Assembly: GCF_046119375.1 (NCBI RefSeq)
Contig: NW_027362773.1
Span: 228,656,001-228,720,000, forward strand
Source of the DNA: Phyllobates terribilis
Lineage: Eukaryota
DNA: 64,000 bases
Reading direction: 5' to 3'
A program made the position numbers and the translations under genes. The notes below the pieces were generated by a model, which saw only the letters and a list, made by a program, of their open reading frames with translations, ran no database searches and was not told the origin of the DNA. Every line of letters begins with the position of its first letter. The stretch's first letter is position 1. This document shows, piece by piece, positions 6,887 through 58,459 of this stretch.

Positions 6887-7102
6887 CTGCCTTACATATT
6901 GCGCTTTTTTAATGGAACTAATAAAATGGACGTTTTAACTTTACATTTCTTATGATGGATACGGAGAAGGTGTTGGAGTGTTTCTAAACTACTTCCTACT
7001 GCTTCTTATCCCTGGACTTACTACCAAGGATTTCCGTGCACCAGTGGACCCTTATAGCATATGCATGGTAGGCTGAAATTTCCACTTTTTTTCCTTATAT
7101 AA

Positions 7103-23993: not shown

Positions 23994-23994
23994 G

Positions 23995-24005
23995 ATTGCT
24001 CGGGC
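23995..24005 (+). promoter_or_regulatory. Self-priming primer-binding site (Tf1-type)
   Basis: ATTGCTCGGGC is the exact reverse complement of GCCCGAGCAAT at 23173-23183, 30 nt downstream of TATATAA. Confidence 0.8.
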
Positions 24006-24006
24006 C

Positions 24007-24957
24007 ATGGAACCCGGTGGCACCCAAGCTCCCTCGCTCTCGGACCTGTGTCATGAACTGTCCCGTCAAAGGTCCCAACAGGAGTCCATTCTGGGTCACC
24101 TGCGGAATGTCAATACTCGCCTGGACACTCTGACTGCTCCACCAGCAACCTCCGCCAGTGCCATGTCTCGCAATCCGGCAGCTCCACTGCCCACTAATAC
24201 CATGGTATCTTACCCCGGACCCCGGCTTTCTGCACCTCCTCGCTTCGGAGGCGACTCCGCCCAGGCTCGGGGCTTCATAAATCAGTGCACCCTGCACTTT
24301 GAACTATTATCTCACCAGTTTAACTCCGACCGGGCCAAAATTGCATTCATCATGTCCCATCTCACCGGGGAGGCCCTGGCCTGGCTAAATCCTCTATGGG
24401 AGAGAGGAGACCCCCTGGTATCCAACTTGCCTGCTTTTCTCACGGCTTTCCGGAAAGTCTTCGACGAACCCGGACGGAAGACCTCATCCGCATCATCTCT
24501 GCTACGCCTCCGTCAGGAAAGTCTCACCGTGGGCCAATATGCCATACGGTTCCGTACCCTTGCCTCGGAGCTGGCCTGGGATAACGACGCTCTGGTTTCC
24601 GTCTTCTGGGAGGGTCTGTCCGGCCGTATTAAAGATGAGCTTGCCGGTCGGGACATTCCTACCACTCTCGATGATTTAATAACTCTTGCCACCCGGATTG
24701 ACCTACGGTTCCAGGAGCGTGCCAGAGAGGTCACCCGTGAGAGGAGATTACCACGTCTAGCTCCTACTTTTCAGAAACCCGTCACTCCTTCTGTCTCTTA
24801 CCAGGTACACTCTCCTGAGCCTATGCAGGTCGACCAGACCAAGATGGTCAAGACCCGTCAGGACTTACGCCGTGCCGAGGGGACCTGCTTCTACTGTGGC
24901 AGTAAGGAGCACCGGATCCGTGCCTGCCCGGAGAGGTCGGGAAACGCCTGTGTCTAG
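24007..24957 (+). CDS. gag: Gag (retrotransposon gag domain, CCHC zinc knuckle)
   Basis: ATG just after the PBS; RFGGDSAQARGF, AKIAFIMSHL.GEALAW, LRQ..TVGQYAIRF, EPMQVD, CFYCGSKEHRIRAC. Confidence 0.95.
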   Translation: MEPGGTQAPSLSDLCHELSRQRSQQESILGHLRNVNTRLDTLTAPPATSASAMSRNPAAPLPTNTMVSYPGPRLSAPPRFGGDSAQARGFINQCTLHFELLSHQFNSDRAKIAFIMSHLTGEALAWLNPLWERGDPLVSNLPAFLTAFRKVFDEPGRKTSSASSLLRLRQESLTVGQYAIRFRTLASELAWDNDALVSVFWEGLSGRIKDELAGRDIPTTLDDLITLATRIDLRFQERAREVTRERRLPRLAPTFQKPVTPSVSYQVHSPEPMQVDQTKMVKTRQDLRRAEGTCFYCGSKEHRIRACPERSGNACV

Positions 24958-24999
24958 GTTCGCTCAGAGAGGTCCACCTAGACAAGAATAAATCCTCTC
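24939..24999 (+). promoter_or_regulatory. -1 programmed ribosomal frameshift signal (G GGA AAC plus H-type pseudoknot)
   Basis: Heptamer in the correct gag phase; stem 1 TGTCTAGGT/ACCTAGACA, stem 2 GAGAGG/CCTCTC; the -1 frame is open into pol. Confidence 0.85.
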
Positions 25000-27900: not shown

Positions 27901-28211
27901 TGAAACTCCCGGCCAACTTACGGATCCCTAACTCCTTCCATGTATCTCTCCTCAAACCCGTGGTGCTTAACTCTTTTTCCAAGTCTACAGGTACGCCTCC
28001 TGCTCCGGTTTCCGCTGAGGACGAGTTTGAGGTAGAGAACATTCTTGCTACCAAAAGGGTAAGAGGGAAGACCTTTTTTCTGGTAGATTGGAAGGGGTTT
28101 GGTCCTGAGGAGAGAACGTGGGAGCCCCGGGAGAACATCCATGCCCCTCTCATCCTTGCTAAATTTCTGTCTGGCCTAAAAAAGGGGGGGCCTAAAGGGG
28201 GGGTACTGTAG
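24939..28211 (+). CDS. pol: Pol (aspartic protease, RT, RNase H, integrase, chromodomain), expressed as Gag-Pol by -1 frameshift
   Basis: LDSGA; YLDD; VDASSSGAGAVL; HHCC finger; DDE core with HPQSNGQVER; GPY/F-like LGPRFIGPL; chromodomain EFEVENIL..FLVDWKGFGPEERTWEP. No stops. Confidence 0.97.
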   Translation, partial: GKRLCLGSLREVHLDKNKSSPSLLLSVSIIYGENRYFELAQLDSGAAGNLISQSLVEKYRIPTKPLAVPLSVAAVDGGLLPRPIQLITESITLQVGMLHSESISFHVLPGLSHALLLGLPWLQRHAPVLDWQTGEVLRWGQGCHKTCLVPVHPVRPSPTPANLPGLPIPYWSYADVFNKKEAETLPPHRPYDCPIDLLPGTSPPRGRIYPLSAAETRSMSEYIEENLARGFIWKSTSPAGAGFFFVKKKDGSLRPCIDYRGLNQITVKNKYPLPLIPELFDRLRGARIFTKLDLRGAYNLVRIRQGDEWKTAINTRDGHYEYLVMPFGLCNAPDVFQELVNDIFRDLLYSCVVVYLDDILVFSPDLQTHRRDVRQVLLRLRQNHLYAKYEKCLFEQTSLPFLGYIISQTGLQMDPEKLSAIEKWPRPEGLKAIQRFLGFANYYRLFIPHFSSRTAPISALTRKGTNPKEWPPEAEEAFLSLKQAFSSAPVLHRPDGNKQFFLEVDASSSGAGAVLTQKSSSGRMVTCRFFSKLFSSSERNYSIGDRELLAIKLALEECHYLLEGALHPVIIYTDHKNLAYLQHAQRLNPRQARWSLFFARFDFVLHFRPADKNVKADALSRSFLVSDLEEEPKHIIDPARVMQVAPVSLNRLPPGKTFASVPDREKILHWGHSSKLAGHAGQKKTLQLIARHYWWPTLHKDVIDFVSACVSCARNKVPRHLPAGRLLPLPVPAASWQHIAMDFITDLLVSVGCTVIWVVADRFSKMAHFIPLPGLPSAPELAKDFIRHIFRLHGLPLHIVSDRGVQFTSRFWRATCKLLDVTLDFSSAYHPQSNGQVERINQNLTSYLRHFVNAHHSDWVDLLPWAEFSYNNHESESSSKSPFFVVFGQHPRIPFPVSTSVDNPAAESLVSKFSSIWESTRSALLLSSERMKRHADKKRLDPPQLRPGDKVWLSSKYVRLKIPSYKLGPRFIGPLEVISQINPVAYKLKLPANLRIPNSFHVSLLKPVVLNSFSKSTGTPPAPVSAEDEFEVENILATKRVRGKTFFLVDWKGFGPEERTWEPRENIHAPLILAKFLSGLKKGGPKGGVL

Positions 28212-29267
28212 TGCCGGCGTCCCTGCCCTCTGCTAGGCAGGGACGCTGTTCCCCTCACCGCTCTGCTCCGTGCCCGGCGTCCCTCTCCCGCTCTGCTGGC
28301 AGCGTGCGCTCCTTCCCGGCCACTGGGCTTAGGGCGCGCGCGCTCTCCCTCCCTCTTAAAGGGGCCGCGCGCGCCGTCCTAAGGAGTCCCCGGCCAATGG
28401 CCGGAGGACTTTACCATATATAAGGCACCTCCTCCAAAATGGAGGTGCCCGAGCAATGTTGTTTGCACCTGTGTCTCACCTGTGCTTCAGCCCTCAGGTC
28501 CCGTTGCCAGTTACCTGCCAGTTACCTGCCAGATTCCTGCCTGATTACTTGCTACCTGCCTGCTAGTCTGAGGTCCGACGGTCTGCCTTACTAATCCTGT
28601 CAGTCTGTCTAAGGACCAGCCTGCCTGCTCACCTGGGAGCGCACATCAGCTACCTGCCTGCTTGCCTGTGGTCCGACGGTCTGCCTTCCAACTCCTGTCA
28701 GTCTGTCTATGGACCAGCTTGCCCGCTCACCTGGGAGCGCACATCTGCTACCTGCCTGCTAGCCTACCTGGAGGCTCCGCCGTCACGTGCTGTGACCACC
28801 TGCCTGTCCAGTGACTCCTGCCCAATCACCTGGGAGCGCTCATCTGCTACCAGTCTGCTTGCCTACCCGGAGGCTCTGCCGTCACGTGCTGTGACCACCT
28901 GCCTGTCCAGAGACTTCTGCCCGCTCACCTGGGAGCGCTCATCTGTCGCCTGTCCGCTGGTCTTCCTGGAGGCTCCGCCGTCACATGCTGTGACCACCCG
29001 TTCATCCAGAGACTCTCGCCTGCTCACCTGGGAGCTCACGTCTATCTTCAGCCGCCACAGGTCGTACCAACCCTATACCTAGAGACTGCCCCGGTCACTT
29101 GCCGTGACCTCCAGCCCGTTCACTCAGAGACTGTCCCGTTCACTCAGAGACTGTCCCGTTCACCTGCTGAGACTTCCAGCCCGTCTTCCCTGGTCGCCAC
29201 CCGCTCCCTTACAAGGACCGCCCCCTTGTATAGTAGCTCAGAGGTTCCGCCTCCCAGACCCATTACA
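28207..29267 (+). repeat. 3' LTR
   Basis: Preceded by a polypurine tract (AAA followed by a G run) and TAC; followed by TSD GTCAT. Confidence 0.97.
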
Positions 29268-32200
29268 GTCATCATTGTAAATCCTATACAGACGGTTTGT
29301 CACCCATTTGGAGCTATCGAAGGGTTTAGATAAAAGGTGAATTGGGGAAGAGAAAAGAGAATGCTTTTTGAAGTCAGGAATAATTGTAATTTTAACCATG
29401 TAGAAATTTCTTTGTTAGGTAAAGTATATCTATCCTGGAGGGATTGAAAAGTAATAAGATTATTATCCAGAATTATATCTTGGATTACTGAGATACTCAA
29501 TTTCAGCTTAGTGATTAAAATTTGGATTGGAAGAGAATTAAGCTGCAAATCTTTAAATTTTGACTTTGTTTTTTGAGCAGATTTCTCCAGACGGTGATAA
29601 CTGCCTTGAGGGTCTGAAAATTTGGTAGAGGTTTACTACGGTCTATAAGATAAGCTGTGATAACTAGCTTCAAGTCACTGAAATTTATTTGGGCCTTTTC
29701 CAAGGAGACCCAGGGAATAGGATTATCTTTTAGTAACCAACCACTTGAGAGTTTCAATATCGTTGCTTGATAATAACTAAAAAGATTTGGGAGACCCAAT
29801 CCTTCTCGTCTCTTATGTTTTTCTAAAAGAGTGATTGATATTCGTGGCTTGTTTTTGTTCCAAATAAACATTCTGAGTTCTGTTTGAAATTTATTGAACC
29901 ATTTTCTAGGTATAGGCAATGGGATACATCTAATTACATATAAAAATTTAGGAAGGGCCATCATCTTGTAGGTAATGATTCTCCCCAGCCACGATAGGTC
30001 TATTTTACTCAGACGGAATAATTTGGTTTGGAGGGATTTATGAAGGATCGGCAGGTTGTCATTGACCACAGATGATGGAGATTTTGTCAGAATTATACCC
30101 AAGTACGAAATCTGCTGCGGTTGCCAGTTAAAGTCGAATTGTACCTTCAAGGCAGTGGCCAAGTTGTCTTCTAAGTTGAAAGTCATACACTGAGTTTTTG
30201 AAAAGTTAATTTTATAAAACGAAACATTAGCAAAATTTTTTTATCAGGGAATTTAAACACTGAAGTGACAAAAGGGGGTTTGAGATGGTAAGCAGAATAT
30301 CGTCTGCAAAAAGTGTGACTTTCGAGCATGTTTGTTTAAAGTTTATACCTTCTATAAATTGGTCAGACCTAATTTTTGCAGCTAGGGGTTCAATAAATAG
30401 GGCAAAAAGTATAGGCAAGAGGGGACATCCCTGTCTGGTGCCATTAGATAAAGGAAACTTAACTGAAAGAAAATTATTTGTGTACACCCGGGCCGATGGA
30501 TTTGAATACATAGCCTTAATGCTGTTGAATATCCTGCCTTGAAATCCAAATTTTTCAAGAGTTTTAAACATATAAGACCAGTTCACCCGGTCAAAAGCTT
30601 TCTCCGCATCTAGGGCCAACAATACTGCTGGAGATTTCTTTTTGCTTATAATCGAGATAATATTAAGGGCTCGTCTTGTGGCATCTGATGTTTATCTTCC
30701 CTGAATAAAACCCACCTGGTCTGAGTTAATTAGTTTGTGAACAAAATTTTGAAGTCTTTGAGCCGCTAATTTAGCCAATAATTTGGTGTCACTGTTCAAA
30801 AGAGAAATAGGCCTGTAATTTTTTGTGTCTTTCGGATCACCTTTGGGCTTGGGGATGACGATCACCAAAGCCTCCAGCATCTCAGCAGGCAAGTGGCCCT
30901 CAATCGCGGATGTATTTGCTAATCTAACTAGAGGATCTTCCAACAAGTTTTCAAAGCACTTATAAAACTCATTTTGAAACCCATCTGGGCCAGGTGATTT
31001 CCCATTTTTAAGGTTTTTAATTAGAGAAGAAATTTCTAATTTAGTATATGGGGAATTCAATTCTTCCAGCTCAGACTTAGAAAGGGAAGGGAGGTTTATG
31101 GAATTTAAAAAAGAGTCTATCACTTCACATGAGGGGTTAGAAAAGTTGGGATTATCCTTAAGATTATATAAATTTTTATAAAAATCAGCAAAGATGTCTG
31201 TGATTTTCTTAGGATGTGTAACTAAATGGGCATTTTTATCTATAATTTGACTAATCTTTGTCTTTTGTCTAAAATGTTTAAGTCTTGCCGCAAAGGCTGG
31301 ATGGTTTATCGGTTGATGAGTAATGGTTTGCTCTAATTCTTTGAGTAACTTTGTCGAATTCTTCAGATAAAAGGATTTTGAGTTTCTGCCTCAATGTCAA
31401 TATTTGAGATTGCAAATCTGGGGAAGGGTTATTAAATACATTTTCTTCTAAAGCTACAATTTCTTTAGTGATTTCAACTGTTTTGTCTCTATTGTTTTTC
31501 TTTAATTGGGAATTTAGTTGGATAAGATGACCCCTTAGTACCGCCTTAAAAGCCGTCCAAAGTAAATAAATTGGAGTATTGCCAGAATCATTCTCTCTAA
31601 AGTAATTCTTAATTGATTGTTCTATTGCACATCTGTATTTAGGATGGGTAAATAAGTAACTGTTGTTTCGCCACAGCCTATTCTCTACTAAAACTGGGCC
31701 AATAATTATTTCAGATAAGACAGGGGCATGATCAGACCATAACCCTGGCTCTATCCGCACAGATATGAATTTGGTTAAAGAAAATATGTCTGTCAGGATC
31801 AGGTCAATACGGGAGTATGAGTTATGCCTTCCTGAGTAATGGGTAAACTCTATAGAAGATGTGTTGAGGCATCTAAATACATCATATAGCTCATTCTTAT
31901 TAATCCACTGGTCTAAATTAGAGAGAAACTGTCTTGATCTAGAGGAGGAGTCCATTAAGGCGTTAGGTACCATGTTAAAATCCCCAAACAAAACCAATTT
32001 TCCCCTCTTGGTTTGGTGAATAAGCTTCATTATTTTGTCCAAAAAGGTTATTTGACCACTATTAGGGACATAAACACTAGCTGGGTGAATTCTACACCAT
32101 TTATTTTACATATTAAAATTAGATATCTTCCATCTTCATTGGCTAATATCAGAAGTTTTTCAAAAGTTACTGTGTTTTTTATAAGAATTGCTACACCTCG

Positions 32201-32726: not shown

Positions 32727-34964
32727 CTATAGACCTTCCTCTACATAGCTTATGGCGACATTCCGGCCCTGGAAAGAAAACACATTCGCTGGGTTGAAAT
32801 CCCACTTATACAGGAGGTGTTTCTGCCGAAGAATGTCTGTGATTTTTGCTAAGTTTTTCCTTTGTAACATGGTCTCTTTTGAGAGATCAGCAAACGTTTT
32901 AATGTTCTCATAGAGGTGAGGTAGGATTTTGTTAGTTCTTATAAATTCTTTTAACCTTTCTTTTGTATGAAAGAAATGGAATTTGACAATTACGTCTCTT
33001 GGAATGTCCGATCTGATATGTTTAGGATTTGGAAGTCTATGGAATCTAACAATAGTGACATCTAGATCTGTCAGAGATGGCAAGGACTTCTTTAGCAGAC
33101 AAAGATCTAATTGGGCATTTTTGACTGACTCAGGGATCCCTCTCAGCTTCAGATTTTGTCTTCTATCCCTGTCTTCTAAATCCGTCATCTTATTTTTAAT
33201 GAATTTGACATCTTCCCTTAGAGTACTTTGCTCCTTCCCCAACTTATCAGTCATTTTTCCGAATTCAAAAACCTCAGCTTCATTTCTTTCTACGCTATGT
33301 GAGATGGAATCAATCTAGGTCTGAAGTTTCTCAAATCTCCTATCTAGGTCTTTTTTTGTGTCCAGTCTCATGGATTTTTTAAAAGCTGTAAACAGACTCT
33401 TGAAAAATGTATGGTCTAATGACTGCTCCCATTTGAAACTTTGACGAGGATCATTTGGGTCAGTATAGGATGAATCGTCTCTCCTAGATCTCTGCTTATC
33501 CGGGCTTACAGTAGGTGAGGAGGTCTCATCCTCTTCAGAGCTCTCCTCCGTCACCTGCTTTGTATGAGATGATTTCTTAGATTCCCTCTCCTTCCTCTTT
33601 TTTGAGGATGACTGAGATTCAATGAACATTGAGTCATCAGATATTTCTTTGTCCTGAGACCGGGTGTTCTTAGCAGAAGTTTTATATAGAGATCTTGACC
33701 TGTCCCTAGGTTTGTTGTTGGGAATAGATTTAGGTTTCTGTAGCGCTGGCGTCCCTGCCCTCTGCTAGGCAGGGACGCTGTTCCCCTCACCCCTCTGCTC
33801 TGAGCCCGGCGTCCTCCTCCCGCTCTGCTGGCAGCGCGCGCTCCTTCCCGGCCACTGTGCTTAGGGCGCGCGCGCGCTCCCTCCCTCTTAAAGGGGCCGC
33901 GCGCGCCGTCCTAAGGAGTCCCCGGCCAATGGCCGGAGGACTTCACCATATATAAGGCACCTCCTCCAAAATGGAGGTGCCCGAGCAATGTTGTTGCACT
34001 GTTCACTACTCTGCTTCAGCCCTCAGGTCCCGTTGCCAGTTACCTGCCAGATTCCTGCCAGTTTGCTGTCTGATTCCTGCCTGATATTCCGCTTACCTGC
34101 CTGCTAGCCTGAGGTCCGACGGTCTGCCTACCGACTCCTGTCAGTCTGTCTAAGGACCAGCTTGCCCGCTCACCTGGGATCGCTCTTCTGCTACCTGCCT
34201 GCTAGCCTGAGGTCAGACGGTCTGCCCTCCAACTCCTGTCAGTCTGTCTATGGACCAGCTTGCCAGCTCACCTGGGAGCGCACATCTGCTACCTGCCTGC
34301 TTGCCTACCTGGAGGCTCCGCCGTCACGTGCTGTGACCACCTGCCATTCCAGAGACTCCTGCCCGCTCACCTGGGAGCGCACACCTGCTACCTACCTGCT
34401 AGCCTACCTGGACGCTCCGCCGTCACGTGCTGTGACCACCTGCCATTCCAGAGACTCCTGCCCGCTCACCTGGGAGCGCACACCTGTTACCTGCCTGCTA
34501 GCCTACCTGGAGGCTCCGCCGTCACGTGCTGTGACCACCTGCCATTCCAGAGACTCTTGCTGGCTCACCTGGGAGCACACATCTACCATCTGCCTGCTAG
34601 CCTACCTGGAGGCTCTGCCATCACAGGTCGTACCTACCCTTTACCCAGAGACTGCCCCGGTCACTTGCCGTGACCTCCTGCCCGTTCATCCAGAGACTGC
34701 CCCGGTCACTTGCCGTGACCTCCTGCCCGTTCATCCAGAGACTGCCCCGGTCACTTGCCGTGACCTCCTGCCCGTTCATCCAGAGACTGCCCCGGTCACT
34801 TGCCGTGACCTCCTGCCCGTTCATCCAGAGACTGTCCCGGTCACCTGCTGTGACTGCCTGCCCGTCTTCCCTGGTCGCCACCCGCTCCCTTACAAGGACC
34901 GCCCCCTTGTATAGTAGCTCAGAGGTTCCGCCTCCCAGACCCGTTACAGTTTCGATGAAGACAT
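32727..34964 (-). pseudogene. ORF1: L1 ORF1 pseudogene, split by the solo LTR after codon 5
   Basis: ATG at 34964 (MSSSK|PKSIPN) rejoins across TSD GTTTC; LEDRDRRQNLKLRGIPE and RDVIVKFH motifs. Confidence 0.85.
33739..34948 (+). mobile_element. Solo LTR (1210 bp) closely related to the Gypsy LTRs
   Basis: TGTAGCG...GTTACA, TSD GTTTC (33734-33738, 34949-34953); same TATA and GCCCGAGCAAT segment; expanded internal repeats. Confidence 0.96.
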
Positions 34965-35268: not shown

Positions 35269-35522
35269 AAACCAGGGGAGGAGTCCTGAGGAGATAATTT
35301 GCATATTCCCACTGCATTTTGGGGTAAGTGAAGAGTCTCCGCGAGCTCAAAGAACACTGGATTTTGGCTGTTGGAGCTGAAAAGAGGACATCGGTAAACC
35401 AGGGGAGGAGTCCTGAGGAGATAATTTGCATATTCCCACTGCATTTTGGGGTAAGTGAAGAGTCTCCGCGAGCTCAAAGAACACTGGATTTTGGCTGTTG
35501 GAGCTGAAAAGAGGACATCGGT
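35269..35522 (+). repeat. Two tandem 127-bp monomers at the CR1 5' end, each with ATTTGCAT and GGTAAGT
   Basis: 35269-35395 is repeated at 35396-35522; octamer at 35297 and 35424; donor-like GTAAGT at 35324 and 35451. Confidence 0.9.
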
Positions 35523-35607
35523 AAACCGCGCGCCTACCGGCGCGCTCATTTTGAAGCTTTTTTTTTTAAGCTTTTTTCACTGTTTTCAGAACATTAACAA
35601 TAAGAAC

Positions 35608-36570
35608 ATGGAAGAGTCCAGGAGCCATTTGGTGAGCTGCATATCCTGCTACATGTTCACAGACTTGCCAGTGGAAAAGCCAAACTTCACATGCCAGAAA
35701 TGCAAGCTTGTGTCCCTGTTGGAGGAAAAGTTGCGAAATCTAGAAGAGAGGTTAACTACCTTAAAAATCATTAAGGAAGGTGAAGAGTTCTTAGACAGAG
35801 CAGAATTATCTCTTCATGATTCAGAAAGAGAAGAAATTCGAACTGCACCTGACGAAACAGAGGAATGGAAGCATGTGACCCACAGAAGCAGGAGGATCGA
35901 GAGGCAGTCAGCACCCATACTGCTCAGGAACCAGTACCAGGCTCTCACGCAGGAGAACCATGAAGAAATACAGCAAAATAAGACTTTGCCAGCAATGAAT
36001 AACCTTGTAAGCCCTCAGAATCCTCCTGGATGGAGAAAGAAGAATGTGGTGAAGAAAAAACGGAGAGTGGTGGTCATGGGGGATTCCCTGTTAAGAGGAA
36101 CAGAGGCCGCTATCTGCAGACCAGACATAACCTCAAGAGAAATGTGCTGTCTTCCAGGAGCAAAAATTAAAGATGTGTCTGACAGGATATCAAGACTCTT
36201 CAGACCTACAGATCACTACCCATTCCTGCTAATACATGTGGGGACAAATGACACCGCAAGAAAGGACCTGGAAACCATCTGCAGTGACTTTGAAGACTTA
36301 GGCAAGAAAGTGAAAGAATTGGGAGCGCAGGTGGTCTTCTCATCCATCCTCCCAGTGGATGGCCATGGAACAATGAGGTGGAATAAGATTCTACAGGTGA
36401 ACAACTGGCTACGTCGATGGTGCCGTCAACAAGGATTTGGATTTCTGGATCACGGAATGAATTACCTATACGATGGACTACTTGCTAGAGATGGGGTGCA
36501 CCTTATGAAGACTGGAAAACATGTATTTGGAAGTCGCCTTGCTACACTCATCAGAAGAGCTTTAAACTAG
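35608..36570 (+). CDS. ORF1: CR1 ORF1 (Cys zinc-finger-like N-terminus, coiled coil, SGNH/GDSL esterase)
   Basis: CISC...CQKC; VVMGDSLLRG, HVGTND, DGVHL. ATG at 35608. Confidence 0.93.
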   Translation: MEESRSHLVSCISCYMFTDLPVEKPNFTCQKCKLVSLLEEKLRNLEERLTTLKIIKEGEEFLDRAELSLHDSEREEIRTAPDETEEWKHVTHRSRRIERQSAPILLRNQYQALTQENHEEIQQNKTLPAMNNLVSPQNPPGWRKKNVVKKKRRVVVMGDSLLRGTEAAICRPDITSREMCCLPGAKIKDVSDRISRLFRPTDHYPFLLIHVGTNDTARKDLETICSDFEDLGKKVKELGAQVVFSSILPVDGHGTMRWNKILQVNNWLRRWCRQQGFGFLDHGMNYLYDGLLARDGVHLMKTGKHVFGSRLATLIRRALN

Positions 36571-36692
36571 AACAATGTGGGAAGGGAAGCAAAAGGCCAG
36601 AAAAAGCCATACAGCTGACAAATACTATTGAGATCTCTGCTACTGGAAGTGGAAAGGAAGAACAAAGACAAAACAATTTAAATAATAAAAAT

Positions 36693-39482
36693 ATGGGAGG
36701 AAGAGAAACCAATCACAAACTAAAATGTTTTTATACAAATGCACAAAGCATGGGCAACAAACAAGGAGAATTGGAACTACTAATGCAGGAAAAGGAATAT
36801 GATGTCATTGGAATCACTGAAACTTGGTGGGACGATACACATGATTGGAATAAAAGGCTAAAAGGATACAACTTATTTGCAAGAAACAGACTTGATAAAC
36901 GAGGAGGAGGTGTTGCATTGTATGTTAGAAAAGCGTATATCTGCACAGAGATTGAAGCTTCAGAGACTGGGAGTTCTGTGGAAACTGTTTGGGTAAGAAT
37001 ACAAGGAGAGAACAACGGAAAGGACACCATTGTAGGCATTTACTACAGGCCACCTGGGCAAGCTGAAGATATGGATGAACTCTTTATGTATCAAATGACC
37101 AAGTTCTCCAAAAAATATGACGTAGTGGTCATGGGAGATTTCAACTATCCAGACATTTGTTGGGAATCTCTCTCAAGTAAAACTAACAGGTCAAGCAAAT
37201 TCTTATCCTCTCTTGCTGACAACTTTATCTTCCAAAAGGTAGGGGAGAAAACAAGGGGATCTGCTACTTTGGATCTAATCCTTATAAACAGGGAGGAAAT
37301 GGTTGAGGAGGTAAAGGTGGCTGGGACCCTAGGAGGCAGCGATCATGCTATTATAGAATTTTGGATAACTAGAGGAGGAAGACATGTGAAGACTCAGACT
37401 TCAAGGTTAGATTTTAGAAAGGCAGATTTTAAGAGACTCAGAAAGAGAATAGGAGGGATCCAATGGCTGGATGTCCTTAAGGACAAAAATGTCCAGGAAG
37501 AATGGGAAATTTTTAAAAATGAGATTCTCAAAGCACAATCGTTAACAATCCCGAAAAGTAGGAAGAATGGGAAGCATTTAAGGAAACCAGGATGGATGAA
37601 CACAGAACTTAAACACATGCTAAAAAGAAAGAAAGAAATGTTTATTAAATGGAAAGAGGGAGGCATATCTAAAGAAGATTATAATGCAGTCTGCAGATCC
37701 TGCAGGGCACGTATCAGGTTAGCTAAAGCTGACAATGAATTAAGGCTTGCAAGAGATGTCAAAAGCAATAAAAAAGGATTTTGGGGGTATGTCAAAAGTA
37801 AAAGAAAAGTCAAAGATGCTATAGGATTTTTACAGGATGAAAATGGAGAAATGGTAAGAGAGGATGTTGAGAAGGCCGAACTTTTTATTTCCTATTTTGC
37901 ATCTGTTTTCTCTCAGAAAGAAAATGTAACATCAACTGATCTTCACTGTCCTTTTAAAGGAATAGAGGAATCCAAGTTATCAGTAAACAGAAAGATTGTG
38001 AGGGAATATTTAGCTAACATAAATGAGTTCAAGTCTCCAGGTCCAAATGAATTACACCCCAGAGTACTGAAGGAGATCGTAGAAGAAATTTTAGAACCAC
38101 TCTCCATAATCTTTGAAAATTCTTGGAGAACAGGAGAAGTCCCAGAAGACTGGACAAGAGCAAATGTTGTTCCTATCTTCAAAAAGGGGAAGAAGGTGGA
38201 CCCAGGGAACTATAGGCCGGTGAGTCTGACTTCTATACCAGGAAAGATATTTGAACAAATTATTAAACAACATGTATGTAAGTACATGGATAAGAATGAA
38301 GTGATTAACCAGAGTCAGCATGGGTTTGTAACTAACAAGTCATGTCAGACTAACTTAATTTCCTTCTATGACAGAATCACTGACTGGGTGGATCAGGGAA
38401 ATGCTGTAGATATAGTATATCTTGACTTCAGCAAAGCATTTGACAAAGTATCTCACACCATCCTTATTGAAAAAATGACCAAGTATGCAATGGACCAGGC
38501 AACTGTTAGGTGGATTCATAACTGGCTTAGTGATCGGACTCAAAGGGTGGTTGTAAATGGCTTCACATCCAGCTGGATGAATGTCTCAAGTGGGGTACCA
38601 CAGGGCTCCGTCCTGGGACCTGTATTGTTCAACATCTTTATCAATGATTTAGATGAAGGAATTGAGGGTAAACTGATTAAATTTGCTGATGACACAAAGC
38701 TAGGAGGGATAGCTAATACTAGAGAAGAGAGAGAGAGGATTCAAAAAGACCTAAATAAACTGGAGCAGTGGGCAGCAACCAACAGAATGGTTTTTAACAG
38801 GGAAAAATGCAAAGTACTACATCTGGGAAATAAAAATGAAAAAAGCATATACAGAATGGGAGGAATAGAGCTAAGCAACAGTACATGTGAAAAAGACTTA
38901 GGTATACTAATAGATCATAGACTGAACATGAGTCAACAGTGTGATGCAGCAGCAAAAAAGGCAAATACAATTCTGGGATGTATTAACAGAAGCATACAGT
39001 CTAGATCACGTGAAGTCATTATCGGTCTTTACTCCTCTTTGGTCAGACCTCATCTGGAATACTGTGTACAGTTTTGGGCACCACATTTTAAAAAAGACAT
39101 AGACAAACTGGAGCAAGTTCAGAGAAGAGCGACCAGAATGGTGACTGGTCTGCAAACCATGTCCTATGAGGAACGGTTGCAGGATTTGGGAATGTTTAGC
39201 TTGCAAAAAAGAAGACTGAGAGGAGACTTAATAGCTGTCTACAAATATGTCAAGGGCTGTCACATTGTAGAAGGATCATCTTTATTCTCATTTGCACAAG
39301 GAAAGACTAGAAGCAATGGGATGAAACTAAATGGGAGGAGACACAGATTAGATATTAGAAAAAACTTTTTGACAGTTAGGGTGATTAATGAGTGGAACAG
39401 GCTGCCACGAGAGGTGGTGAGTTCCCCTTCAATGGACGTCTTCAAACAGAGGCTGGACAGACATCTGTCTGAGATGATCTAG
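36693..39482 (+). CDS. ORF2: CR1 ORF2 (APE endonuclease and reverse transcriptase), 929 aa
   Basis: CFYTNAQS, ITETWW, GDFNYP, SDH; YRPVSLTS, LDFSKAFD, GVPQGSVLGP, KFADD, LVRPHLEYC. No stops. Confidence 0.97.
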   Translation: MGGRETNHKLKCFYTNAQSMGNKQGELELLMQEKEYDVIGITETWWDDTHDWNKRLKGYNLFARNRLDKRGGGVALYVRKAYICTEIEASETGSSVETVWVRIQGENNGKDTIVGIYYRPPGQAEDMDELFMYQMTKFSKKYDVVVMGDFNYPDICWESLSSKTNRSSKFLSSLADNFIFQKVGEKTRGSATLDLILINREEMVEEVKVAGTLGGSDHAIIEFWITRGGRHVKTQTSRLDFRKADFKRLRKRIGGIQWLDVLKDKNVQEEWEIFKNEILKAQSLTIPKSRKNGKHLRKPGWMNTELKHMLKRKKEMFIKWKEGGISKEDYNAVCRSCRARIRLAKADNELRLARDVKSNKKGFWGYVKSKRKVKDAIGFLQDENGEMVREDVEKAELFISYFASVFSQKENVTSTDLHCPFKGIEESKLSVNRKIVREYLANINEFKSPGPNELHPRVLKEIVEEILEPLSIIFENSWRTGEVPEDWTRANVVPIFKKGKKVDPGNYRPVSLTSIPGKIFEQIIKQHVCKYMDKNEVINQSQHGFVTNKSCQTNLISFYDRITDWVDQGNAVDIVYLDFSKAFDKVSHTILIEKMTKYAMDQATVRWIHNWLSDRTQRVVVNGFTSSWMNVSSGVPQGSVLGPVLFNIFINDLDEGIEGKLIKFADDTKLGGIANTREERERIQKDLNKLEQWAATNRMVFNREKCKVLHLGNKNEKSIYRMGGIELSNSTCEKDLGILIDHRLNMSQQCDAAAKKANTILGCINRSIQSRSREVIIGLYSSLVRPHLEYCVQFWAPHFKKDIDKLEQVQRRATRMVTGLQTMSYEERLQDLGMFSLQKRRLRGDLIAVYKYVKGCHIVEGSSLFSFAQGKTRSNGMKLNGRRHRLDIRKNFLTVRVINEWNRLPREVVSSPSMDVFKQRLDRHLSEMI

Positions 39483-45339: not shown

Positions 45340-46333
45340 GATATAGTGAAACACTGCTCCGTACACCTCGTACACACACGGCTCTGCTCCGTAAACCTTG
45401 TAGACACGCAGCTCCGCTCCGTACACGTGCAGCTCCGCACACCTCGTACACGCACTGCTCCGCACCATACACCTCGTACATGCACGGCTTTGCTCCATAC
45501 ACATTGTATACACGCGGCTCCGCTCAGTACACCTCGTACACACATGGCGCGGCTCCGTACACCTTGTACACCCCATACACACGCAGCTCCGCTCCGTACA
45601 CCTTGTACACCTCATAGACACGCGGCTCCGCTCCGTACACCTCGTAGACACGCGGCTCCGCTCCGTACACATGCGGCTCCGCTCCGTACACCCCGTACAC
45701 ACGCGGCTCCGCTCCGTACACCCCATACACACGCGGCTCCGCTCCGTACACACGTGGCTCCGCTCCGTACACCTCGTAGACACGCGGCTCTGCTCCGTAC
45801 ACGTGCGGCTCCGCACACCTCGTACACGCATGGCTTTGCTCCGTACACATTGTACACACACACTGCTCCGCTCACCTCGTACACACGCGGCTCCGCTCTG
45901 TACACCTCATACACACGCGGCTCCGCTCTGTACACCTCATACACACGCGGCTCCGCTCTGTACACCTCATACACACGCGGCTCCGCTCTGTACACCTCAT
46001 ACACACGCGGCTCCGCTCTGTACACCTCATACACACGCGGCTCCGCTCTGTACACCTCATACACACGCGGCTCCGCTCTGTACACCTCATACACACGCGG
46101 CTCCGCTCTGTACACCTCATACACACGCGGCTCCGCTCTGTACACCTCATACACACGCGGCTCCGCTCTGTACACCTCATACACACGCGGCTCCGCTCTG
46201 TACACCTCATACACACGCGGCTCCGCTCCGTACACCTCATACACACGCGGCTCCGCTCCGTACACCTCATACACACGCGGCTCCGCTCCGTACACCTCGT
46301 ACACACGTGGCTCCGTTCCATACAACTCGTACA
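45340..46333. repeat. 30-bp minisatellite (TACACCTCATACACACGCGGCTCCGCTCTG)
   Basis: About eleven identical units at about 45890-46225, with degenerate units upstream. Confidence 0.95.
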
Positions 46334-46335
46334 TA

Positions 46336-47939
<1,604 letters not shown>

Positions 47940-47941
47940 TA

Positions 47942-48135
47942 CATGGCTCCGCTCCGTACACCTCGTACACGCACGCCTCCGCTCCGTACACCTCGTACAC
48001 GCACGCCTCCGCTCCGTACACCTCGTACACGCACGCCTCCGCTCCGTACACCTCGTACACGCACGCCTCCGCTCCGTACACCTCGTACACGCACGCCTCC
48101 GCTCCGTACACCTCGTACACGCACGCCTCTGCTAC
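47942..48135. repeat. 30-bp minisatellite continuation (GCTCCGTACACCTCGTACACGCACGCCTCC x6)
   Basis: Six tandem units at 47951-48130. Confidence 0.95.
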
Positions 48136-48504
48136 ATCCACATATAAACTTCAGCTCATCCAGCACCATGACAACCAGCACAGCAGAGTCCTGCATACAC
48201 TGAGGCCCCTGATCATGTGACCGCTGACTCCTCCCCTCCTGTGACCTCATCACAGGTCCTGTGCGCACAGATCAGCCATATATGTGGTGGCGGCTCTGCA
48301 GGAGGAGGTATGTTCAGATTCCCCATTACTGGACGCAGGGGGCATTAACCCCTTCAGCACTGAGACTCTTTTGGGGTCTTGTGTTGCCCCTTTATAGGAA
48401 TCATTAACGTTTTTGTTCTGTTACCAGTAATAGATACATACGCCCCAACTATGGAGACAGGAAGTGAGGAAACGTGTTGTTCTCATAGTACAGGACCCTT
48501 TATT

Positions 48505-51270: not shown

Positions 51271-51982
51271 TTAACCCTTTCTTCCCAGAGCCATAACTTT
51301 TTTTTATTTTTCCATCAATATGGCCATGTGAGGGCTTATTTTTTGAGGGCCAAGTTGTACTTTTGAACAACACCATTGGTTTTGCCATATCTTGTATTGG
51401 AAAATGGGTGAAAAAATTCCAAGTGCAGTGAAATTGCAAAAACTGTGAATTTCCACAATTGTTTTTTGGGTATTTTTTTACCATGTTCACTAAATGCTAA
51501 AACTGGCCTGCCATTATGATTCTCCTGGTCATTATGAGTTCATAGATACCAAACATGTATAGGTTCTTTTTTATTGAAGTGGTGAAAAAAAACAACAAAG
51601 TTTGTTTAAAAAAAAAAAAAAGAAACATTTTCCAAGACCCATAGCGTCTCCATTTTTCGTTATCTGGGGCTGGGTGAGGGCTAAGTTTTTGCGTGCTGAA
51701 TGGACGCTTTTATTGGTACCATTTTCGTGTAGATACTATGTTTTGATCGCCCGTTATTGCATTTTATTGCAATGTTGCGGCAACCAAAAAAACGTAATTC
51801 TGACCTTCTGATTTTTTTCGCGTTACACCATTTACCCATCGGATTAATTCTTTTTTTATATTGATATATCGGGCGATTCTGAACGCAGCGATACCAAACG
51901 TGTATTTTTTTTTATTTTTTTTATTTTGAAAGGGGGCTGATTTGAATATATATAATATATATATATATAATATATATATATA

Positions 51983-53612
51983 CAGTACAGACCAAAAGTT
52001 TGGATACACCTTCTCATTTAGAGATTTTTCTGTATTTTCATGACTATGAAAATTGTATATTCACACTGAAGGCATCAAAACTATGAATTAACACATGTGG
52101 AATTATATACTTAACAAAAAAGTGTGAAACAACTGAAAATATGTCTTATATTCTAGGTTCTTCAAAGTAGCCACCTTTTGCTTTGATGACTGCTTTGCAC
52201 ACTCTTGGCATTCTCTTGATGAGCTTCAAGAGGTAGTCACCGGAAATGGTTTTCACTTCACAGGTGTGCCCTGTCAGGTTTAATAAGTGGGATTTCTTGC
52301 CTTATAAATGGGGTTGGGACCATCAGTTGTGTTGTGCAGAAGTCTGGTGGATACACAGCTGATAGTCCTACTGAATAGACTGTTAGCTGCTTTTTTCTTG
52401 CAATAATACAAATTCTAAGAAAAGAAAAACGAGTGGCCATCATTACTTTAAGAAATGAAGGTCAGTCTGTCCGAAAAATTGGGCAAACTCTGAAAGTGTC
52501 CCCAAGTGCAGTTGCAAAAACCATCAAACGCTACAAAGAAACTGGCTCACATGAGGACCACCCCAGGAAAGGAAGACCAAGAGTCACCTCTGCTTCTGAG
52601 GATAAGTTTATCCGAGTCATCAGCCTCAGAAATCGCAGGTTAACAGCAGCTCAGATTAGAGACCAGGTCAATGCCACACAGAGTTCTAGCAGCAGACACA
52701 TCTCTTCAACAACTGTTAAGAGGAGACTTTGTGCAGCAGGCATTCATGGTAAAATAGCTGCTAGGAAACCACTGCTAAGGACAGGCAACAAGCAGAAGAG
52801 ACTTGTTTGGGCTAAAGGACACAAGGAATGGACATTAGACCAGTGGAAATCTGTGCTTTGGTCTGATGAGTCCAAATTTGAGATCTTTGGTTCCAACAAC
52901 CGTGTCTTTGTGCGACTCAGAAAAGGTGAACGGATGGACTCTACATGCCTGGTTCCCACCGTGAAGCATGGAGGAGGAGGTGTGATGGTGTGGGGGTGCT
53001 TTGCTGGTGACACTGTTGGGTATTTATTCACAATTGAAGGCATCCTGAACCAGCATGGCTACCACAGCATCTTGCGGTGGCATGCTATTCCATCCGGTTT
53101 GCGTTTAGTTGGACCATCATTTATTTTTCAACAGGACAATGACCCCAAACACACCTCCAGGCTGTGTAAGGGCTATTTGACCAAGAGGGAGAGTGATGGG
53201 GTGCTACACCAGATGACCTGGCCTCCACAGTCACCAGACCTGAACCCAATCGAGATGGTTTGGAGTGAGCTGGACCGCAGATTGAAGGCAAAAGGGCCAA
53301 CAAGTGCTAAGCATCTCTGGGAACTCCTTCAAGATTGTTGGAAGACCATTTCCGGTGACTGCCTCTTGAAGCTCGTCAAGAGAATGCCAAGACTGTGCAA
53401 AGCAGTCATCAAAGCAAAAGATGGCTACTTTGAAGAACCTAGAATATAAGACATATTTTCAGTTGTTTCACACTTTTTTGTTAAGTATATAATTCCACAT
53501 GTGTTAATTCATAGTTTTGATGCATTCAGTGTGAATGTACAATTTTCAAAGTCATGAAAATACAGAAAAATCTTTAAATGAGAAGGTGTGTCCAAACTTT
53601 TGGTCTGTACTG
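51983..53612 (+). mobile_element. Full-length Tc1-related DD38E (Intruder-type) transposon
   Basis: TA TSD; about 200-bp TIRs CAGTACAGACCAAAAGTTTGG / CCAAACTTTTGGTCTGTACTG; 38 residues between the second D (QQD) and E (NPIE). Confidence 0.93.
52433..53449 (+). CDS. DD38E transposase; 338 uninterrupted codons but the native start is lost through a micro-inversion
   Basis: Paired-like [30 protein letters not shown]. The N-terminal ARKKQL is found on the opposite strand at 52387-52414. Confidence 0.8.
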   Translation: MAIITLRNEGQSVRKIGQTLKVSPSAVAKTIKRYKETGSHEDHPRKGRPRVTSASEDKFIRVISLRNRRLTAAQIRDQVNATQSSSSRHISSTTVKRRLCAAGIHGKIAARKPLLRTGNKQKRLVWAKGHKEWTLDQWKSVLWSDESKFEIFGSNNRVFVRLRKGERMDSTCLVPTVKHGGGGVMVWGCFAGDTVGYLFTIEGILNQHGYHSILRWHAIPSGLRLVGPSFIFQQDNDPKHTSRLCKGYLTKRESDGVLHQMTWPPQSPDLNPIEMVWSELDRRLKAKGPTSAKHLWELLQDCWKTISGDCLLKLVKRMPRLCKAVIKAKDGYFEEPRI

Positions 53613-55477
53613 TATATATATATATGTGTGTGTTAATATCTTTAAAAACATTTTTTTCTCGCTGTACACTTGCTTCAGTAGTCTCCATGGGAGACTAGAA
53701 GCTGCGATCGTCTGATCTCCAGTGTTACATATAGCAGGGCTTCCTTCCTGCAGAGATCTGTCTATCGCTGGCAGTAGGTGGAGGGGAAGCTGCCAGGGAC
53801 CCACCTGTCTGACTAGTCTACAGCACAGTCTGGTCCTCAGCTGCTAATAAAGTGTTTTTCTTTGAAATGCCACAGTTTTGGAGTCAGATATACCTGGCTG
53901 GGATCATACAGCTGGTGCTTGATAAATGCAGCCCACAGTTTGGGCAGCATTTATCAGGTTCACTTTGGGCCACTTTCAGACACGTCAGTGTCTCCAGTTC
54001 GTGTGGTTACCGTTTCCTGACGTACCGTAGACACATACACACTTAGACCCATTCAAATCAATGGGTCTGTGCACAAGTCAGTGTGTTTCCAGAGACCGTG
54101 TGTCCATGGGCAAGACATGTTGACATGTCTGTTTTTTTTTGCGCTGCATGTGCCGTAAAATGTCCCACACATCCATGTGTCATCAATGTGACTCGTACCG
54201 GCGCCTGGGAATCAGCTGTACAGTTAGCGCTGTTCCTAAGCGCCGGGTGCTGAACGCTGCCTTCATCATTGTCCCCTGTCGGCGCTGCGATCAGTGCGAG
54301 CAAGGGACAATGGTGAGAGTAGTATTCTACTCCAGCTGTGTCCTGGGGTAAAAATAAGAATAGAATAAAAAAAATTGTTATACTCACCTGTCCGAAGATG
54401 TCCCCTGCTGTAATCCACCTGACCGCTCACGCCAAGGAGCCGGGGAGAATGACTCGTTCCAGCAAGCGGGCCCCGGAGCTGCGCTGAGCTCAGTGAGTGA
54501 GTGACAGGACACCGTTAGCTGTAGGAGTCAGTCTTCCCGGCTCCTCGGCATGAGCGGTCAGATATATTACAGCGGGGGACACTTAAAATAGGTGAGTATA
54601 AAGAATTTTTTCATTTTATTCTTATTTTTACAGTTGGAGACAGTGGGAGCAGAATACTATTGTCGTCATTAACCCATGCTGGTGCTGATCGCAGCGCCGG
54701 CAGGGGACTATGATGAGCGCAGCGTTCAGCACCCGGCGCTTGGGAACCCCACTAAGTGTACCGCTGATTCCCAGGCGCCGGAACATGTGATCCTGATGTT
54801 GCCACACAGGTGCAGTCGGAAACGGATATCTCCTGTACTGGCTTTTCTGCTACCACAAATATCAGGACTTGTGAAACCTGCCTTAAATAAATTTATTCAT
54901 CTGTATGTTCACAAGCGGCACTTTAGCCCCACCACATGTGCCTTTTCTTAAACTTGTAATGGACCTGAAATGCTGTATATGACCATATGTGAATACATGG
55001 ATGTACTAAGTACATGTGCATCACATACAGATATGTACACAGATACATGGACATAACACACATAGAAACACACACACATATATGCACACAAATTACACAT
55101 GCACTTACCCTCTCTGCAGATGATGCGTGCGGCTTACCAGCTTCTTCATCCTGTACCCTGTACTTATGTCTTCTCTGTGGTGCAGCCTTCCCTTCACCTG
55201 GGGCCCGACTGCAGAGCTCTCCTGCTGTAATTGCAGGGCAGAAGGCAGGAGAGGGAGAGCGGAGTATTATTATACAGAGCGGGGTGGGGGCCGGGAGAGC
55301 TGTGACCATACTGTAAGCTGCTTCTCTGCTCTGCTGGAACCCCGAGCTGGTGGGCTTATCCTCCTCTTCTGCTCTAACAGAGCACTGAGAGCAGAGATAG
55401 ATGCTGGGAAAGGAAGTTGTTTCTGCTCTCTCTGGAGTCACGACAAACCAGTAGTATGGATAAAAATGTAGGTTTAT

Positions 55478-55519
55478 TGTTTACGCGTTTCAGAGTCCAC
55501 CGACTCCTTCCTCAGGATA
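55478..55519 (-). ncRNA. Minimal type I hammerhead ribozyme motif (inverted copy, damaged stem I)
   Basis: TATC-CTGAGGA-A-GGAGTC-ggtg-GACTCT-GAAACGCGTA-AACA on the minus strand. Confidence 0.65.
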
Positions 55520-55532
55520 ACCATACATAACC

Positions 55533-55574
55533 TGTCCTGAGGAAGGAGTCGGTGGACTCTGAAACACGTAGACA
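55533..55574 (+). ncRNA. Minimal type I hammerhead ribozyme motif
   Basis: TGTC-CTGAGGA-A-GGAGTC-ggtg-GACTCT-GAAACACGTA-GACA. Confidence 0.75.
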
Positions 55575-56307
55575 ATAAACCTACATTTTTATACATACTA
55601 ATGGTTTGTTGTGACTCCACAGAGCGCAGAAACAACTTCCTTTCCCAGCATCTATCTCTGACATATCCATAGGAAGCTGCAGCATCTGGAGTCCAGGCTT
55701 TACAGGTATTGTATCCCAAACAACCCTACTAGGTGAGCAGTTTTTAATACTTCTGTACCATTTATTAATTGGATAAGACCCTATTGCGCTCTTGCATTTT
55801 TTCATAGAGCACTGAGACAGAGGCATCCTCTACGTGGTGGACACAGTGCAGCCAGAGTAGCAGAGGTAGATCCTTCTCCCGACTCCGGGCCCACGAAATC
55901 CTCCGCTGGTCCTGACGGAGCCTGGTTGTTTTCAACTGTAACTTCATCCTAAGGATGCAGATACTGTTGAAATTCTGATGAAGGTGTGCTGTTACACACT
56001 GAGCCCCCCTGTCTCATGGACCCCATAGCAGCTGTGTGGGCTGCTGCCATGGACGGTATGCCCCTGCTTCCATACATTTACATACCTCCCAACTTTTGGA
56101 GAACAGAAAGAGGGACACATCATGTGGCGTGCATAGTGTGCCGCTGAAAATTTTGGCCACGCCACTGGTCACACCCCAATCAAAGTCCATTCACCATTAT
56201 CTTTCTCCTCCGGCAGGAGGAGTTGTCAGAGGAGCGCTGATAATGAGGGGCATTCAGCAGACGCCCAAGACTGCAGGGTGCAGACCCAAATCCAGGACAT
56301 TTGGGGC

Positions 56308-56453: not shown

Positions 56454-57109
56454 GTTGGGACCTGTGGATTATTTTTTTGATTCTTCATTCACAGTCGGAG
56501 CCGCCACAACTTTCTCCTCTTTATGTAGCCTCACTAAACGACATCTGACTTTTTTTGTGTCTGTAAGGCCGTGTTCACACGTTGCAGAAATACTGTGTTT
56601 TTTGTTTTCTGCAGGATCTGCAGCAAACTACACAATAGCAATATTCTCCCGCTTATTTGTTGCTTTTCTGGTACAGATGTGAAGCTGCATTTTTAATGTG
56701 CTTTTTATAGTACAGAAAAGCTTTGATTCTGCACTTAATAAAGTATCTGCGTTTTTTTTAGGCTCCACATAGAAGCATCTAAAGAATAAAAAGTACCAAA
56801 GCCGCACAATTCAGCGGTGTCCTTGGGCGCACATCGGGCTCCTTTTTTTATTTAAGTAGTTTTTATTATGGATTTTTTACATGAATGGGGTAAAGAAAAA
56901 GGGGGGAGACATATTATAAATACACAGTAATATAGAAAAAGGGGGGGGACATATTATAAATATACAGTAATATAGAAAAAGGGGGGAATTATTATGAATA
57001 CACAGTAATATAGAAGCAAACAAAAACAAAATAAAAGCAACATTTAAAGGGGTGAAAGATATAGGCAACATAATGGGTGGAATAAATTAATCAATTTAAA
57101 ATCTTTGAA

Positions 57110-58459
57110 AATCAACAAATGAAAGTCAGACATTGCTTTTCAACCCTGCTTTCACAGAATTTTAAAAAAAATTAAACCTATGAAATTGGCCTGGACAGAA
57201 ATGATGGTTCTTGTTAACTTAATATTTTGTTGAACAACCTTTTGAGGTAATCACTGCAATCAAACAATTCCTGTAACTGTCAATGAGACTTCTGCACCTC
57301 TCGACAGGTATTTTGGCCCTCTTCTCATGAGCAAACTGCTCCAGTTGCCTCGTGTTTGAAGGTTGCCTTTTCCAGACGGCATGTTTCAGCTCTTTCCAAA
57401 GATGCTCAATAGGATTTAGGTCAGGGCTCATAGAAGGCCACTTCAGAATAGTCCAATGTTTTCCACTTAGCCATTCTTGGGTGTTTTTAGCTGTGTGTTT
57501 TGGGTCATTATCCTGTTGTAAGACCCATGACCTGCGACTGAGACCGAGCTTTTTGACAATGGGCAGCACATTTCTCTCTAGAATGCCGTGATAGTCTTGA
57601 GATTTCATTATACCCTGCACAGATTCAAGACACCCTGTGCCAGATGCAGCAAAGCAGCCCCAGAACATAACAGCCTCCTCCTTTAGCAAATTCCAGTCTG
57701 GTTTTTTTTTTATGATTTTGTTTTCAACAATGGTGTTCTCCTTGGTCGTTTCCCATGAAGTCCACTTTGGATCAAACAACGACGGATGGTGCGATCTGAC
57801 ACTGATGTCCCTTGAGCTTGAAGTTCACCTTTAATCTCTTTAGAAGTTTTCCTGGGCTGTTTTGTTACCATTCATATTATCCGTCTCTTTGATTTGTCAT
57901 CAATTTTCCTCCTGCGGCCACGTCCAGGGAGGTTGGCTACAGTCCCATGGATCTTAAATTTCTGAATAATACGTGCAACTGTAGTCACAGGAACATCAGG
58001 CTGCTTGGAGATGGTCTTCTTACCTTTTAACATGCTTGTCTATAATTTTCTTTCTAATCTCCTGAGACAACTCTTTCCTTTTCTTCCTATGGTCCATGTT
58101 GAGTGTGGTACACACCATGTCACCAAACAGCACAGTGAGTATCTGTAGCCCTATATACAGGCCGATTGACTGATTACAAGATTGTAGACACCTGTGATGC
58201 TAATTAGTGGACACAACTTGATTTAACATGTCCCTTTTGTCACATTATTTTCAAGGGTACAATAATTTCTGTCCAGGCCTATTTCATGAGTTTAATTTTT
58301 TTTCAATTCTGTGGAAGCAGGGTTGAAAAGCAATGTCTGACTTTCATTTGTTCATTTCCATAAATTTTTTATTTATTATTACTTTTGTCAAGTTATTTCT
58401 GTGACCATTGTGGGTTTTTCTTTCATTAAACGAGGGGTACCAACAATTTTGACCATGTG
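57110..58459 (-). mobile_element. Tc1 (DD34E) transposon, decayed and internally deleted (transposase 58097 to 57219)
   Basis: MDHRKKRKELSQ start; [19 protein letters not shown](34)..SPDLNPIE; inverted terminal blocks at about 57110-57210 and 58255-58360. Confidence 0.88.

Follow-up and report, generated by a model that had tools for sequence, protein, structure and literature searches.

Within the window (the whole 64-kb stretch of DNA analysed here), a 415-bp unit with a minimal hammerhead motif on each strand is best explained as an insertion derived, most likely, from a Penelope-like retroelement (PLE), made of two pieces set head to head, perhaps by double priming, and probably inert. 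Taken as a whole, this account is likely to be right. The preliminary description had seen in the same unit a minimal ribozyme element able to self-cleave whichever strand is transcribed, and much of the anatomy that it reported stands, while this function is not supported.

Contigs from 4 of 22 listed public runs, three guessed to be DNA and one guessed to be RNA, were aligned to 55000-56200 at 80% likeness; the guessed RNA run (X10) has low-depth family-like contigs and was left out of the evidence. Two inverted arms of 126 nt each (55392-55517 and 55535-55660) were found as described, with 7 mismatches (94%) and a separation of 17 nt. The unit lies between two exact copies of a 12-bp direct repeat, AGAGCACTGAGA, at 55379-55390 and 55806-55817, with 415 bp in between; the chance of such a repeat is roughly 1e-4, a rough estimate that allows 40 × 40 border positions. 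The 17 nt between the arms do have the length claimed for them as a spacer, but they are not a neutral loop, since 15 of the 17 bases (55518-55532) are family sequence of the minus copy, an assignment based on the majority letter at 55518 and on the letters between joints in run X6, and the other two (55533-55534) open the plus copy. The unit consists of two unequal, 5′-truncated head-to-head copies, 141 nt inverted and 273 nt forward, and not of arms round a loop. The copies start at unequal points, 17 nt (minus) and 4 nt (plus) upstream of the hammerhead core, and their 3′ ends differ by 145 nt, the minus copy ending at the equivalent of 55660 and the plus copy at 55805. At the centre, fold-back complementarity of at least 3 nt is absent for the top strand. 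The 415-bp unit holds no ORF remnant, a 185-codon open frame over 54923-55480 (minus strand) has no Pfam match, and no second copy of the hammerhead unit occurs within the 64-kb window. The features are as follows.

55149-55389, strand not assigned: left part of the host repeat, from contigs joining 55389 to 55874
55379-55390, plus strand: left copy of the 12-bp direct repeat, a likely target-site duplication with an edge that can be read at 10 to 17 bp
55391, plus strand: single base, not mirroring 55661, that separates the left arm from the duplication
55392-55532, minus strand: inverted short copy, 141 nt, from 17 nt upstream of the core (majority letters, X6 joint letters)
55473-55478, minus strand: AATAAA downstream of the minus hammerhead
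55476-55521, minus strand: minimal type I hammerhead, minus copy, with intact core and ACGCGU and with helix I pairs broken at 55481 and 55518
55533-55574, plus strand: minimal type I hammerhead, plus copy, with 4-bp helix I, 6-bp helix II and the palindrome broken at 55566
55533-55805, plus strand: forward copy, 273 nt, from 4 nt upstream of the core
55574-55579, plus strand: AATAAA downstream of the plus hammerhead
55661-55805, plus strand: 145-nt one-sided extension (the tail), also high-copy family sequence
55733-55807, plus strand: 75-nt spliceosomal intron predicted from sequence only, with GTGAG donor, pyrimidine tract and CATAG acceptor, the acceptor AG being the first two bases of the right duplication
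55806-55817, plus strand: right copy of the 12-bp direct repeat, with exact-match contigs crossing the junction in X1 and X6
55818-56044, strand not assigned: right part of the host repeat, from contig alignment

In the contig alignment both flanks of the unit belong to one host repeat. One contig per DNA run (depth 72, 148 and 167) joins 55389 to 55874 with 19 other letters, the first 9 of which resemble 55823-55831 at 8 places. This empty paralogue of the host repeat, which reads through one repeat copy, supports a target-site duplication (TSD); it is ~10% diverged, has 6 bases missing at the junction and carries the 19 letters in place of 55823-55873. The proposed 12-bp TSD round the unit is therefore upheld as a repeat and supported by a paralogue without the insert, whereas the joint of an empty allele, 55390>55818, was absent among the 15 of 76 joints listed. 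The 5 target bases that follow reappear in the left arm, offset inward by one base, and the right repeat may begin with 2-3 bases of element sequence (an exact contig runs from 55779 in X1), so the duplication can be read as 10 to 17 bp. At the right junction, the exact contigs of X1 and X6 include 27 and 18 element letters, which is under the 31-letter bridging mark. Runs X2 and X6 also have a second contig (55788-55978), which begins where the exact one does but differs from it at 11-13 letters; it probably represents a filled site that was duplicated or belongs to another allele, with ~7% divergence. Contigs starting at 55788 were considered as an empty allele (12 mismatches), which is less likely, as the exact and diverged contigs of X6 run apart for >100 nt. 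The host repeat falls into several subfamilies that carry internal deletions (joints 55124>55201 and 55264>55844), and a 43-nt palindrome lies in it at ~55930-55972.

The family to which the unit belongs is, with high confidence, the pseudo-LTR of an endonuclease-bearing (EN+) PLE. PLE insertions are described as having an inverted 5′-truncated copy, a tail and 8-10-bp duplications (PMC8557442; PMC3846280), and Penelope as having a 75-bp intron in its 5′ UTR (PMC8557442). Of the traits of EN+ PLE insertions, an inverted 5′-truncated copy adjacent at the 5′ end and dispersed copies of variable truncation are present here; a one-sided tail is present too, but measures 145 nt against the 30-40 bp reported for PLEs. 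The minimal hammerhead of PLEs has an extra base after position 9, a long helix II of 6 or more pairs, a short helix I of 4-5 or more pairs and a palindromic helix III, and occurs in thousands of copies per genome, with ~9,000 in Xenopus tropicalis (PMC4209133); the motif here agrees with it apart from the 10.1-11.1 pair. The suggested link to the inverted pseudo-LTRs of PLEs thus draws support from anatomy, family truncation and hammerhead type. No RT or GIY-YIG ORF linked to the hammerhead family was found in the 64-kb window. Motif scans gave 0 matches in metagenome contigs and 0 in viral contigs; two loci with a shorter motif in viral and metagenome contigs (L001 and L002) had no upstream core or long inverted repeat and were put down to chance.

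The window as a whole is rich in other mobile elements, and its repeat landscape suggests a frog-like amphibian as host. Among the long window ORFs scanned, 7 of 10 match RT, gag, transposase or BED domains, and most of them are transposon-derived. A decayed, near full-length PLE occupies 1102-7104, with direct pseudo-LTRs (1102-1379 and 6829-7104) that are 91% alike and with RVT_1 (E 2e-4) and GIY-YIG (E 2e-4) matches, both under the Pfam cut-off; its CxxC linker presumably resembles that of Neptune. Both of its pseudo-LTRs contain a hammerhead-like motif (~6845-6886) with an atypical first box without CUGANGA, and a MITE-like palindrome at ~3.6-4.3 kb interrupts its RT region. This PLE (~1.1-7.1 kb) was considered as the parent of the unit and rejected, the alignment score of its pseudo-LTR being 100 and the shuffle mean 100.5. 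A Ty3/gypsy retrotransposon at 22933-29268, with LTRs (22933-23994 and 28207-29268) that are 99% identical, open gag and pol and a chromodomain, is probably young judging by its sequence, and a further LTR-like copy lies at 33738-34950. An L1-like element at 8996-14397 has open frames of 406 and 1253 codons, with endonuclease and RT domains in the second. The LINE at 35455-39482, which we take to be CR1-like, has a first frame that is esterase-like and a second that holds endonuclease and RT, and just before it stands a perfect 132-bp near-tandem duplication (35269-35527). Two Tc1/mariner elements (51970-53625 and 57088-58378) are bounded by long terminal inverted repeats, and in the first a transposase frame of 356 codons is open. 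Long palindromic MITE-like repeats are many (54181-54798, 3771-4093, 910-1109, 1559-1856 and others), and a minisatellite of 30-bp period forms two blocks (45351-46337 and 47941-48143) with inverted matching sequence at 46334-46546 and 47728-47941.

The sequence at 55392-55805 belongs to a high-copy family, probably of thousands of copies. Depth over 55410-55819 was 2,100-33,000 per bin in 3 of 3 DNA runs, with single-locus contigs at ~5-25, although summed contig depth is not true copy number. The arm segment (both arms summed) has ~3-5x the depth of the tail, which hints weakly that ends near 55660 are preferred; subfamilies sharing only the hammerhead part could equally raise this ratio, and there are loose ends at 55460. 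Among the differences listed, the left copy departs from the family majority at 55427, 55451, 55481 and 55518, and the right arm at 55566, 55593 and 55620, and six further departures lie in the tail; for the arm mismatch 55442/55610, the changed side is not given by the 40 of 231 differences listed. At least three other head-to-head joints with different breakpoints, each at single-locus depth, were found among the 15 of 76 joints and the 12 of 48 rows of between-joint letters listed: 55529>55659 in 3 of 3 DNA runs, 55484>55554 in 2 of 3 (which could instead mark a similar palindrome that has lost sequence at its tip) and 55499>55567 in run X6. With other breakpoints at other loci, unit length is not fixed, and the idea of a minimal element, for which fixed length and variable truncation were compared in the contigs, gives way to variable truncation.

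These joints also speak against a palindromic, non-autonomous family of fixed length, whether MITE-like or retrozyme-like, whose copies would stem from a master locus through the action of PLE proteins. Such a family would suit the high depth, non-autonomous derivatives of pseudo-LTRs have been proposed in frogs (bioRxiv 10.64898/2026.07.22.740005), and the second right-junction version in X2 and X6 could be counted in its favor. That version, however, shares the host flank and is not an independent insertion; the other joints have their own breakpoints; among the contigs listed, both that span the centre contain 8-9 gaps; two deep contigs (216 and 252) continue 28 unaligned letters beyond 55802; and retrozymes are head-to-tail arrays. 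A fixed-length family is accordingly very improbable in our estimate.

The CUGAGGA...GAAAC hammerhead claimed for each strand is present on both, with CTGAGGA...GAAAC cores that begin at 55537 (plus) and 55515 (minus), 22 nt apart, and both copies have the CUGANGA and GAAAN...UH boxes. The plus hammerhead has ACACGU, a 4-bp helix I, an extra A (55544) after position 9 and a helix II of 6 bp with G-U as first pair, and its putative cut falls between 55570 and 55571. The minus hammerhead retains the ACGCGU palindrome, has two broken helix I pairs and has its putative cut between 55482 and 55481, so that the ACACGU of the plus copy and the ACGCGU and damaged stem I of the minus copy were all found as reported. 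Stem I of the plus copy, said to be kept, is indeed paired but not at full length, being shortened to 4 of the 6 pairs given by the family-majority letters. These letters give 6 helix I pairs together with the whole helix III palindrome, a combination that neither window copy has; they differ from the window at both broken helix I places of the minus copy, and the majority at 55566 is G. The 10.1-11.1 pair is G-U and not G-C in both hammerheads, with no majority change at 55492 or 55560 (10.1-11.1) among the 40 of 231 differences listed. Helix III of a dimer is predicted at -3.3 kcal/mol for the plus copy versus -9.5 for the minus copy, and the predicted probability of helix I in the isolated copies is <=4e-4 (plus) and <=8e-6 (minus).

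Single minimal hammerheads reportedly show no cleavage in vitro and dimers little (PMC4209133), the hammerhead of the lizard PLE PAc needs protein for cleavage (PMC11167929), and 1 of 9 Xenopus retrozyme dimers cleaved (bioRxiv 10.64898/2026.07.22.740005). Rfam gave no hammerhead match on the window, either at gathering or at E up to 10, and the matches at E up to 10 were microRNA-hairpin and weak lncRNA only, which were dismissed as generic; Rfam models do not detect these minimal hammerheads. Departures from the family majority, with letters taken from the differences listed, number 3 of 86 in the hammerhead footprints (55478-55521 and 55533-55574) and 10 of 328 elsewhere (Fisher p 0.74, a low-power test), and none of those in the hammerheads is compensatory. 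The hammerheads decay at the background rate, and both are damaged at structural positions.

Folding was addressed as an equilibrium prediction only. The RNA hairpin is predicted at -245.4 kcal/mol (z -25), with 0 of 100 shuffles folding equally well, and when the plus hammerhead fold is forced the prediction is -179.3, a cost of 66 kcal/mol. In read-through RNA of either strand, the predicted pair probability of helix II is <=7e-19, even for RNA ending ~30 nt past the cut site. Because the layout is head to head, a transcript from either flank makes the antisense arm before the hammerhead; the read-through RNA is predicted to fold as a 126-bp hairpin that hides both hammerheads, which would make dsRNA possible and self-cleavage not. 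A hammerhead could be freed only if the RNA started in the centre, and the probability of helix I would then still be <=4e-4 in the same models. Since the two copies stand on opposite strands and have complementary defects, one RNA cannot combine the intact halves of both. As modelled, the insertion is probably inert now. The supposed self-cleavage on either strand is thus not supported, with the antisense arm made first and the damage of the two copies lying in different helices. As a predicted fold (-245.4 kcal/mol) the long dsRNA hairpin is borne out, and it might feed small-RNA pathways by analogy with Drosophila, where transformed flies reportedly had siRNAs that matched Penelope copies in their inverted parts (PMC3681739).

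The same findings bear on the suggestion of a kept functional switch, which would self-cleave on either strand or supply small RNA against its own family. In favor of such a switch are the two intact catalytic boxes, the high stability of the hairpin and the siRNAs of transformed flies that match inverted Penelope copies (PMC3681739). Against this, changes in the hammerheads accrue at the background rate with none compensatory, what is sound in one copy is missing from the other on the opposite strand, transcription always yields the antisense arm first, and the isolated copies reach helix I probabilities of only <=4e-4 (plus) and <=8e-6 (minus). We find a functional switch scarcely credible. 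For ribozyme screens the locus is a caution, as head-to-head hammerheads seem bidirectional yet are predicted to silence each other.

How two unequal copies came to meet head to head may be explained by double target priming, to which we give about an even chance. The element endonuclease would nick both target strands ~12 bp apart, and each nicked 3′ end would prime reverse transcription on unspliced element RNA, using two internal start sites at the positions equal to 55660 and 55805. Both short cDNAs would stop just upstream of the hammerhead and be joined end to end without homology. Two inward cDNAs would account for the duplication, for the head-to-head centre and for outward 3′ ends that differ in length. 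The PAc protein has been reported to cut and extend both target strands, and two internal start sites bound its tail (PMC11167929). A point against double priming is the presence of 5-nt and 2-3-nt target matches at the outer junctions, whereas PAc starts are non-homologous to the cut DNA (PMC11167929); the tail, four times as long as usual, is another, and one junction cannot settle the mechanism. The literature searched, a weak basis as it covered few subscription papers, held no twin- or double-priming model of PLE inversions, and the term 'twin priming' had 0 occurrences among the PLE papers. Craig et al. treat the origin of tandem and inverted PLE structures as an open question (PMC8557442).

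The same PLE stump could alternatively have gained its mirror half by self-priming, with antisense RNA or cDNA folding back just upstream of the hammerhead and serving as its own template. Self-priming has been proposed for head-to-head PLE copies with junction palindromes (PMC3846280), it also accounts for intron retention, and the 15-nt unique centre could under it be the loop of the template arm. However, no complement of at least 3 nt to the 3′ end of the loop-bearing strand occurs in the last 45 nt of that strand. The arm with the loop, moreover, is the shorter of the two and adjoins the duplication, so that it would need a 145-nt cut-back after serving as template. Self-priming is therefore unlikely, in our view, as the source of this unit.

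An extension of double target priming, tentative and rather doubtful, is that the stumps are paired run-off cDNAs, with the element RNA starting ~14-18 nt upstream of the hammerhead and reverse transcription start signals near the 5′ end being used too. The hint lies in the starts: the minus copy begins at -17, and the ends of three further joints fall at -14 or -15, accompanied by 1-3 other letters, in a sample that is biased, as the reference reaches only -17 and 15 of 76 joints are listed. If true, run-off would make self-priming unnecessary as an explanation of the thousands of lone frog hammerheads, of the inverted pseudo-LTR and of the one-sided tail, and the template RNA would be uncleaved. 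Such stumps hold both priming ends and the central joint in 415 bp, and a comparison of the stumps in one frog assembly could separate double target priming from self-priming and show whether cleavage shapes the template. In itself the single locus, a decayed insertion from a family that probably numbers thousands, carries little weight, and its kind has been in print since 2013-2014.

Set beside known systems, as far as the available text of the sources describes them, the unit shares with animal non-LTR retrozymes a small size, the lack of coding sequence, a type I hammerhead and a proposed pseudo-LTR origin (PMC7229834; bioRxiv 10.64898/2026.07.22.740005), and amphibian hammerheads are reported to need dimers (PMC7229834; bioRxiv 10.64898/2026.07.22.740005). 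Retrozymes are head-to-tail, and two hammerheads on the same strand set free a monomer or circle, whereas the hammerheads here lie head to head on opposite strands and no RNA holds two (PMC7229834; bioRxiv 10.64898/2026.07.22.740005); the unit is not a retrozyme. In PAc, a Poseidon-clade PLE of Anolis, the hammerhead is upstream of the start sites and dispensable for insertion in vitro, and the ORF begins inside the hammerhead, whereas in the unit AATAAA and the predicted intron come after it (PMC11167929); the available account of PAc mentions no head-to-head products. Like EN+ PLE insertions, the unit has a head-to-head 5′-truncated copy and a one-sided extension, with a likely target-site duplication and a candidate intron of 75 nt; unlike them, it has no ORF remnant, a 145-nt extension and no junction palindrome (PMC3846280; PMC8557442). 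The published minimal hammerheads have a highly conserved G-C at 10.1-11.1, which is G-U here (PMC4209133). Opposite-strand pairs of minimal hammerheads from truncated PLEs were already in print in 2014 (PMC4209133). Those in Schistosoma are ~100-700 bp apart, while the cores here start 22 nt apart (PMC4209133), and the pairs of Cervera and De la Pena have the same minimal type I hammerhead on opposite strands and were likewise ascribed to truncated PLEs (PMC4209133).
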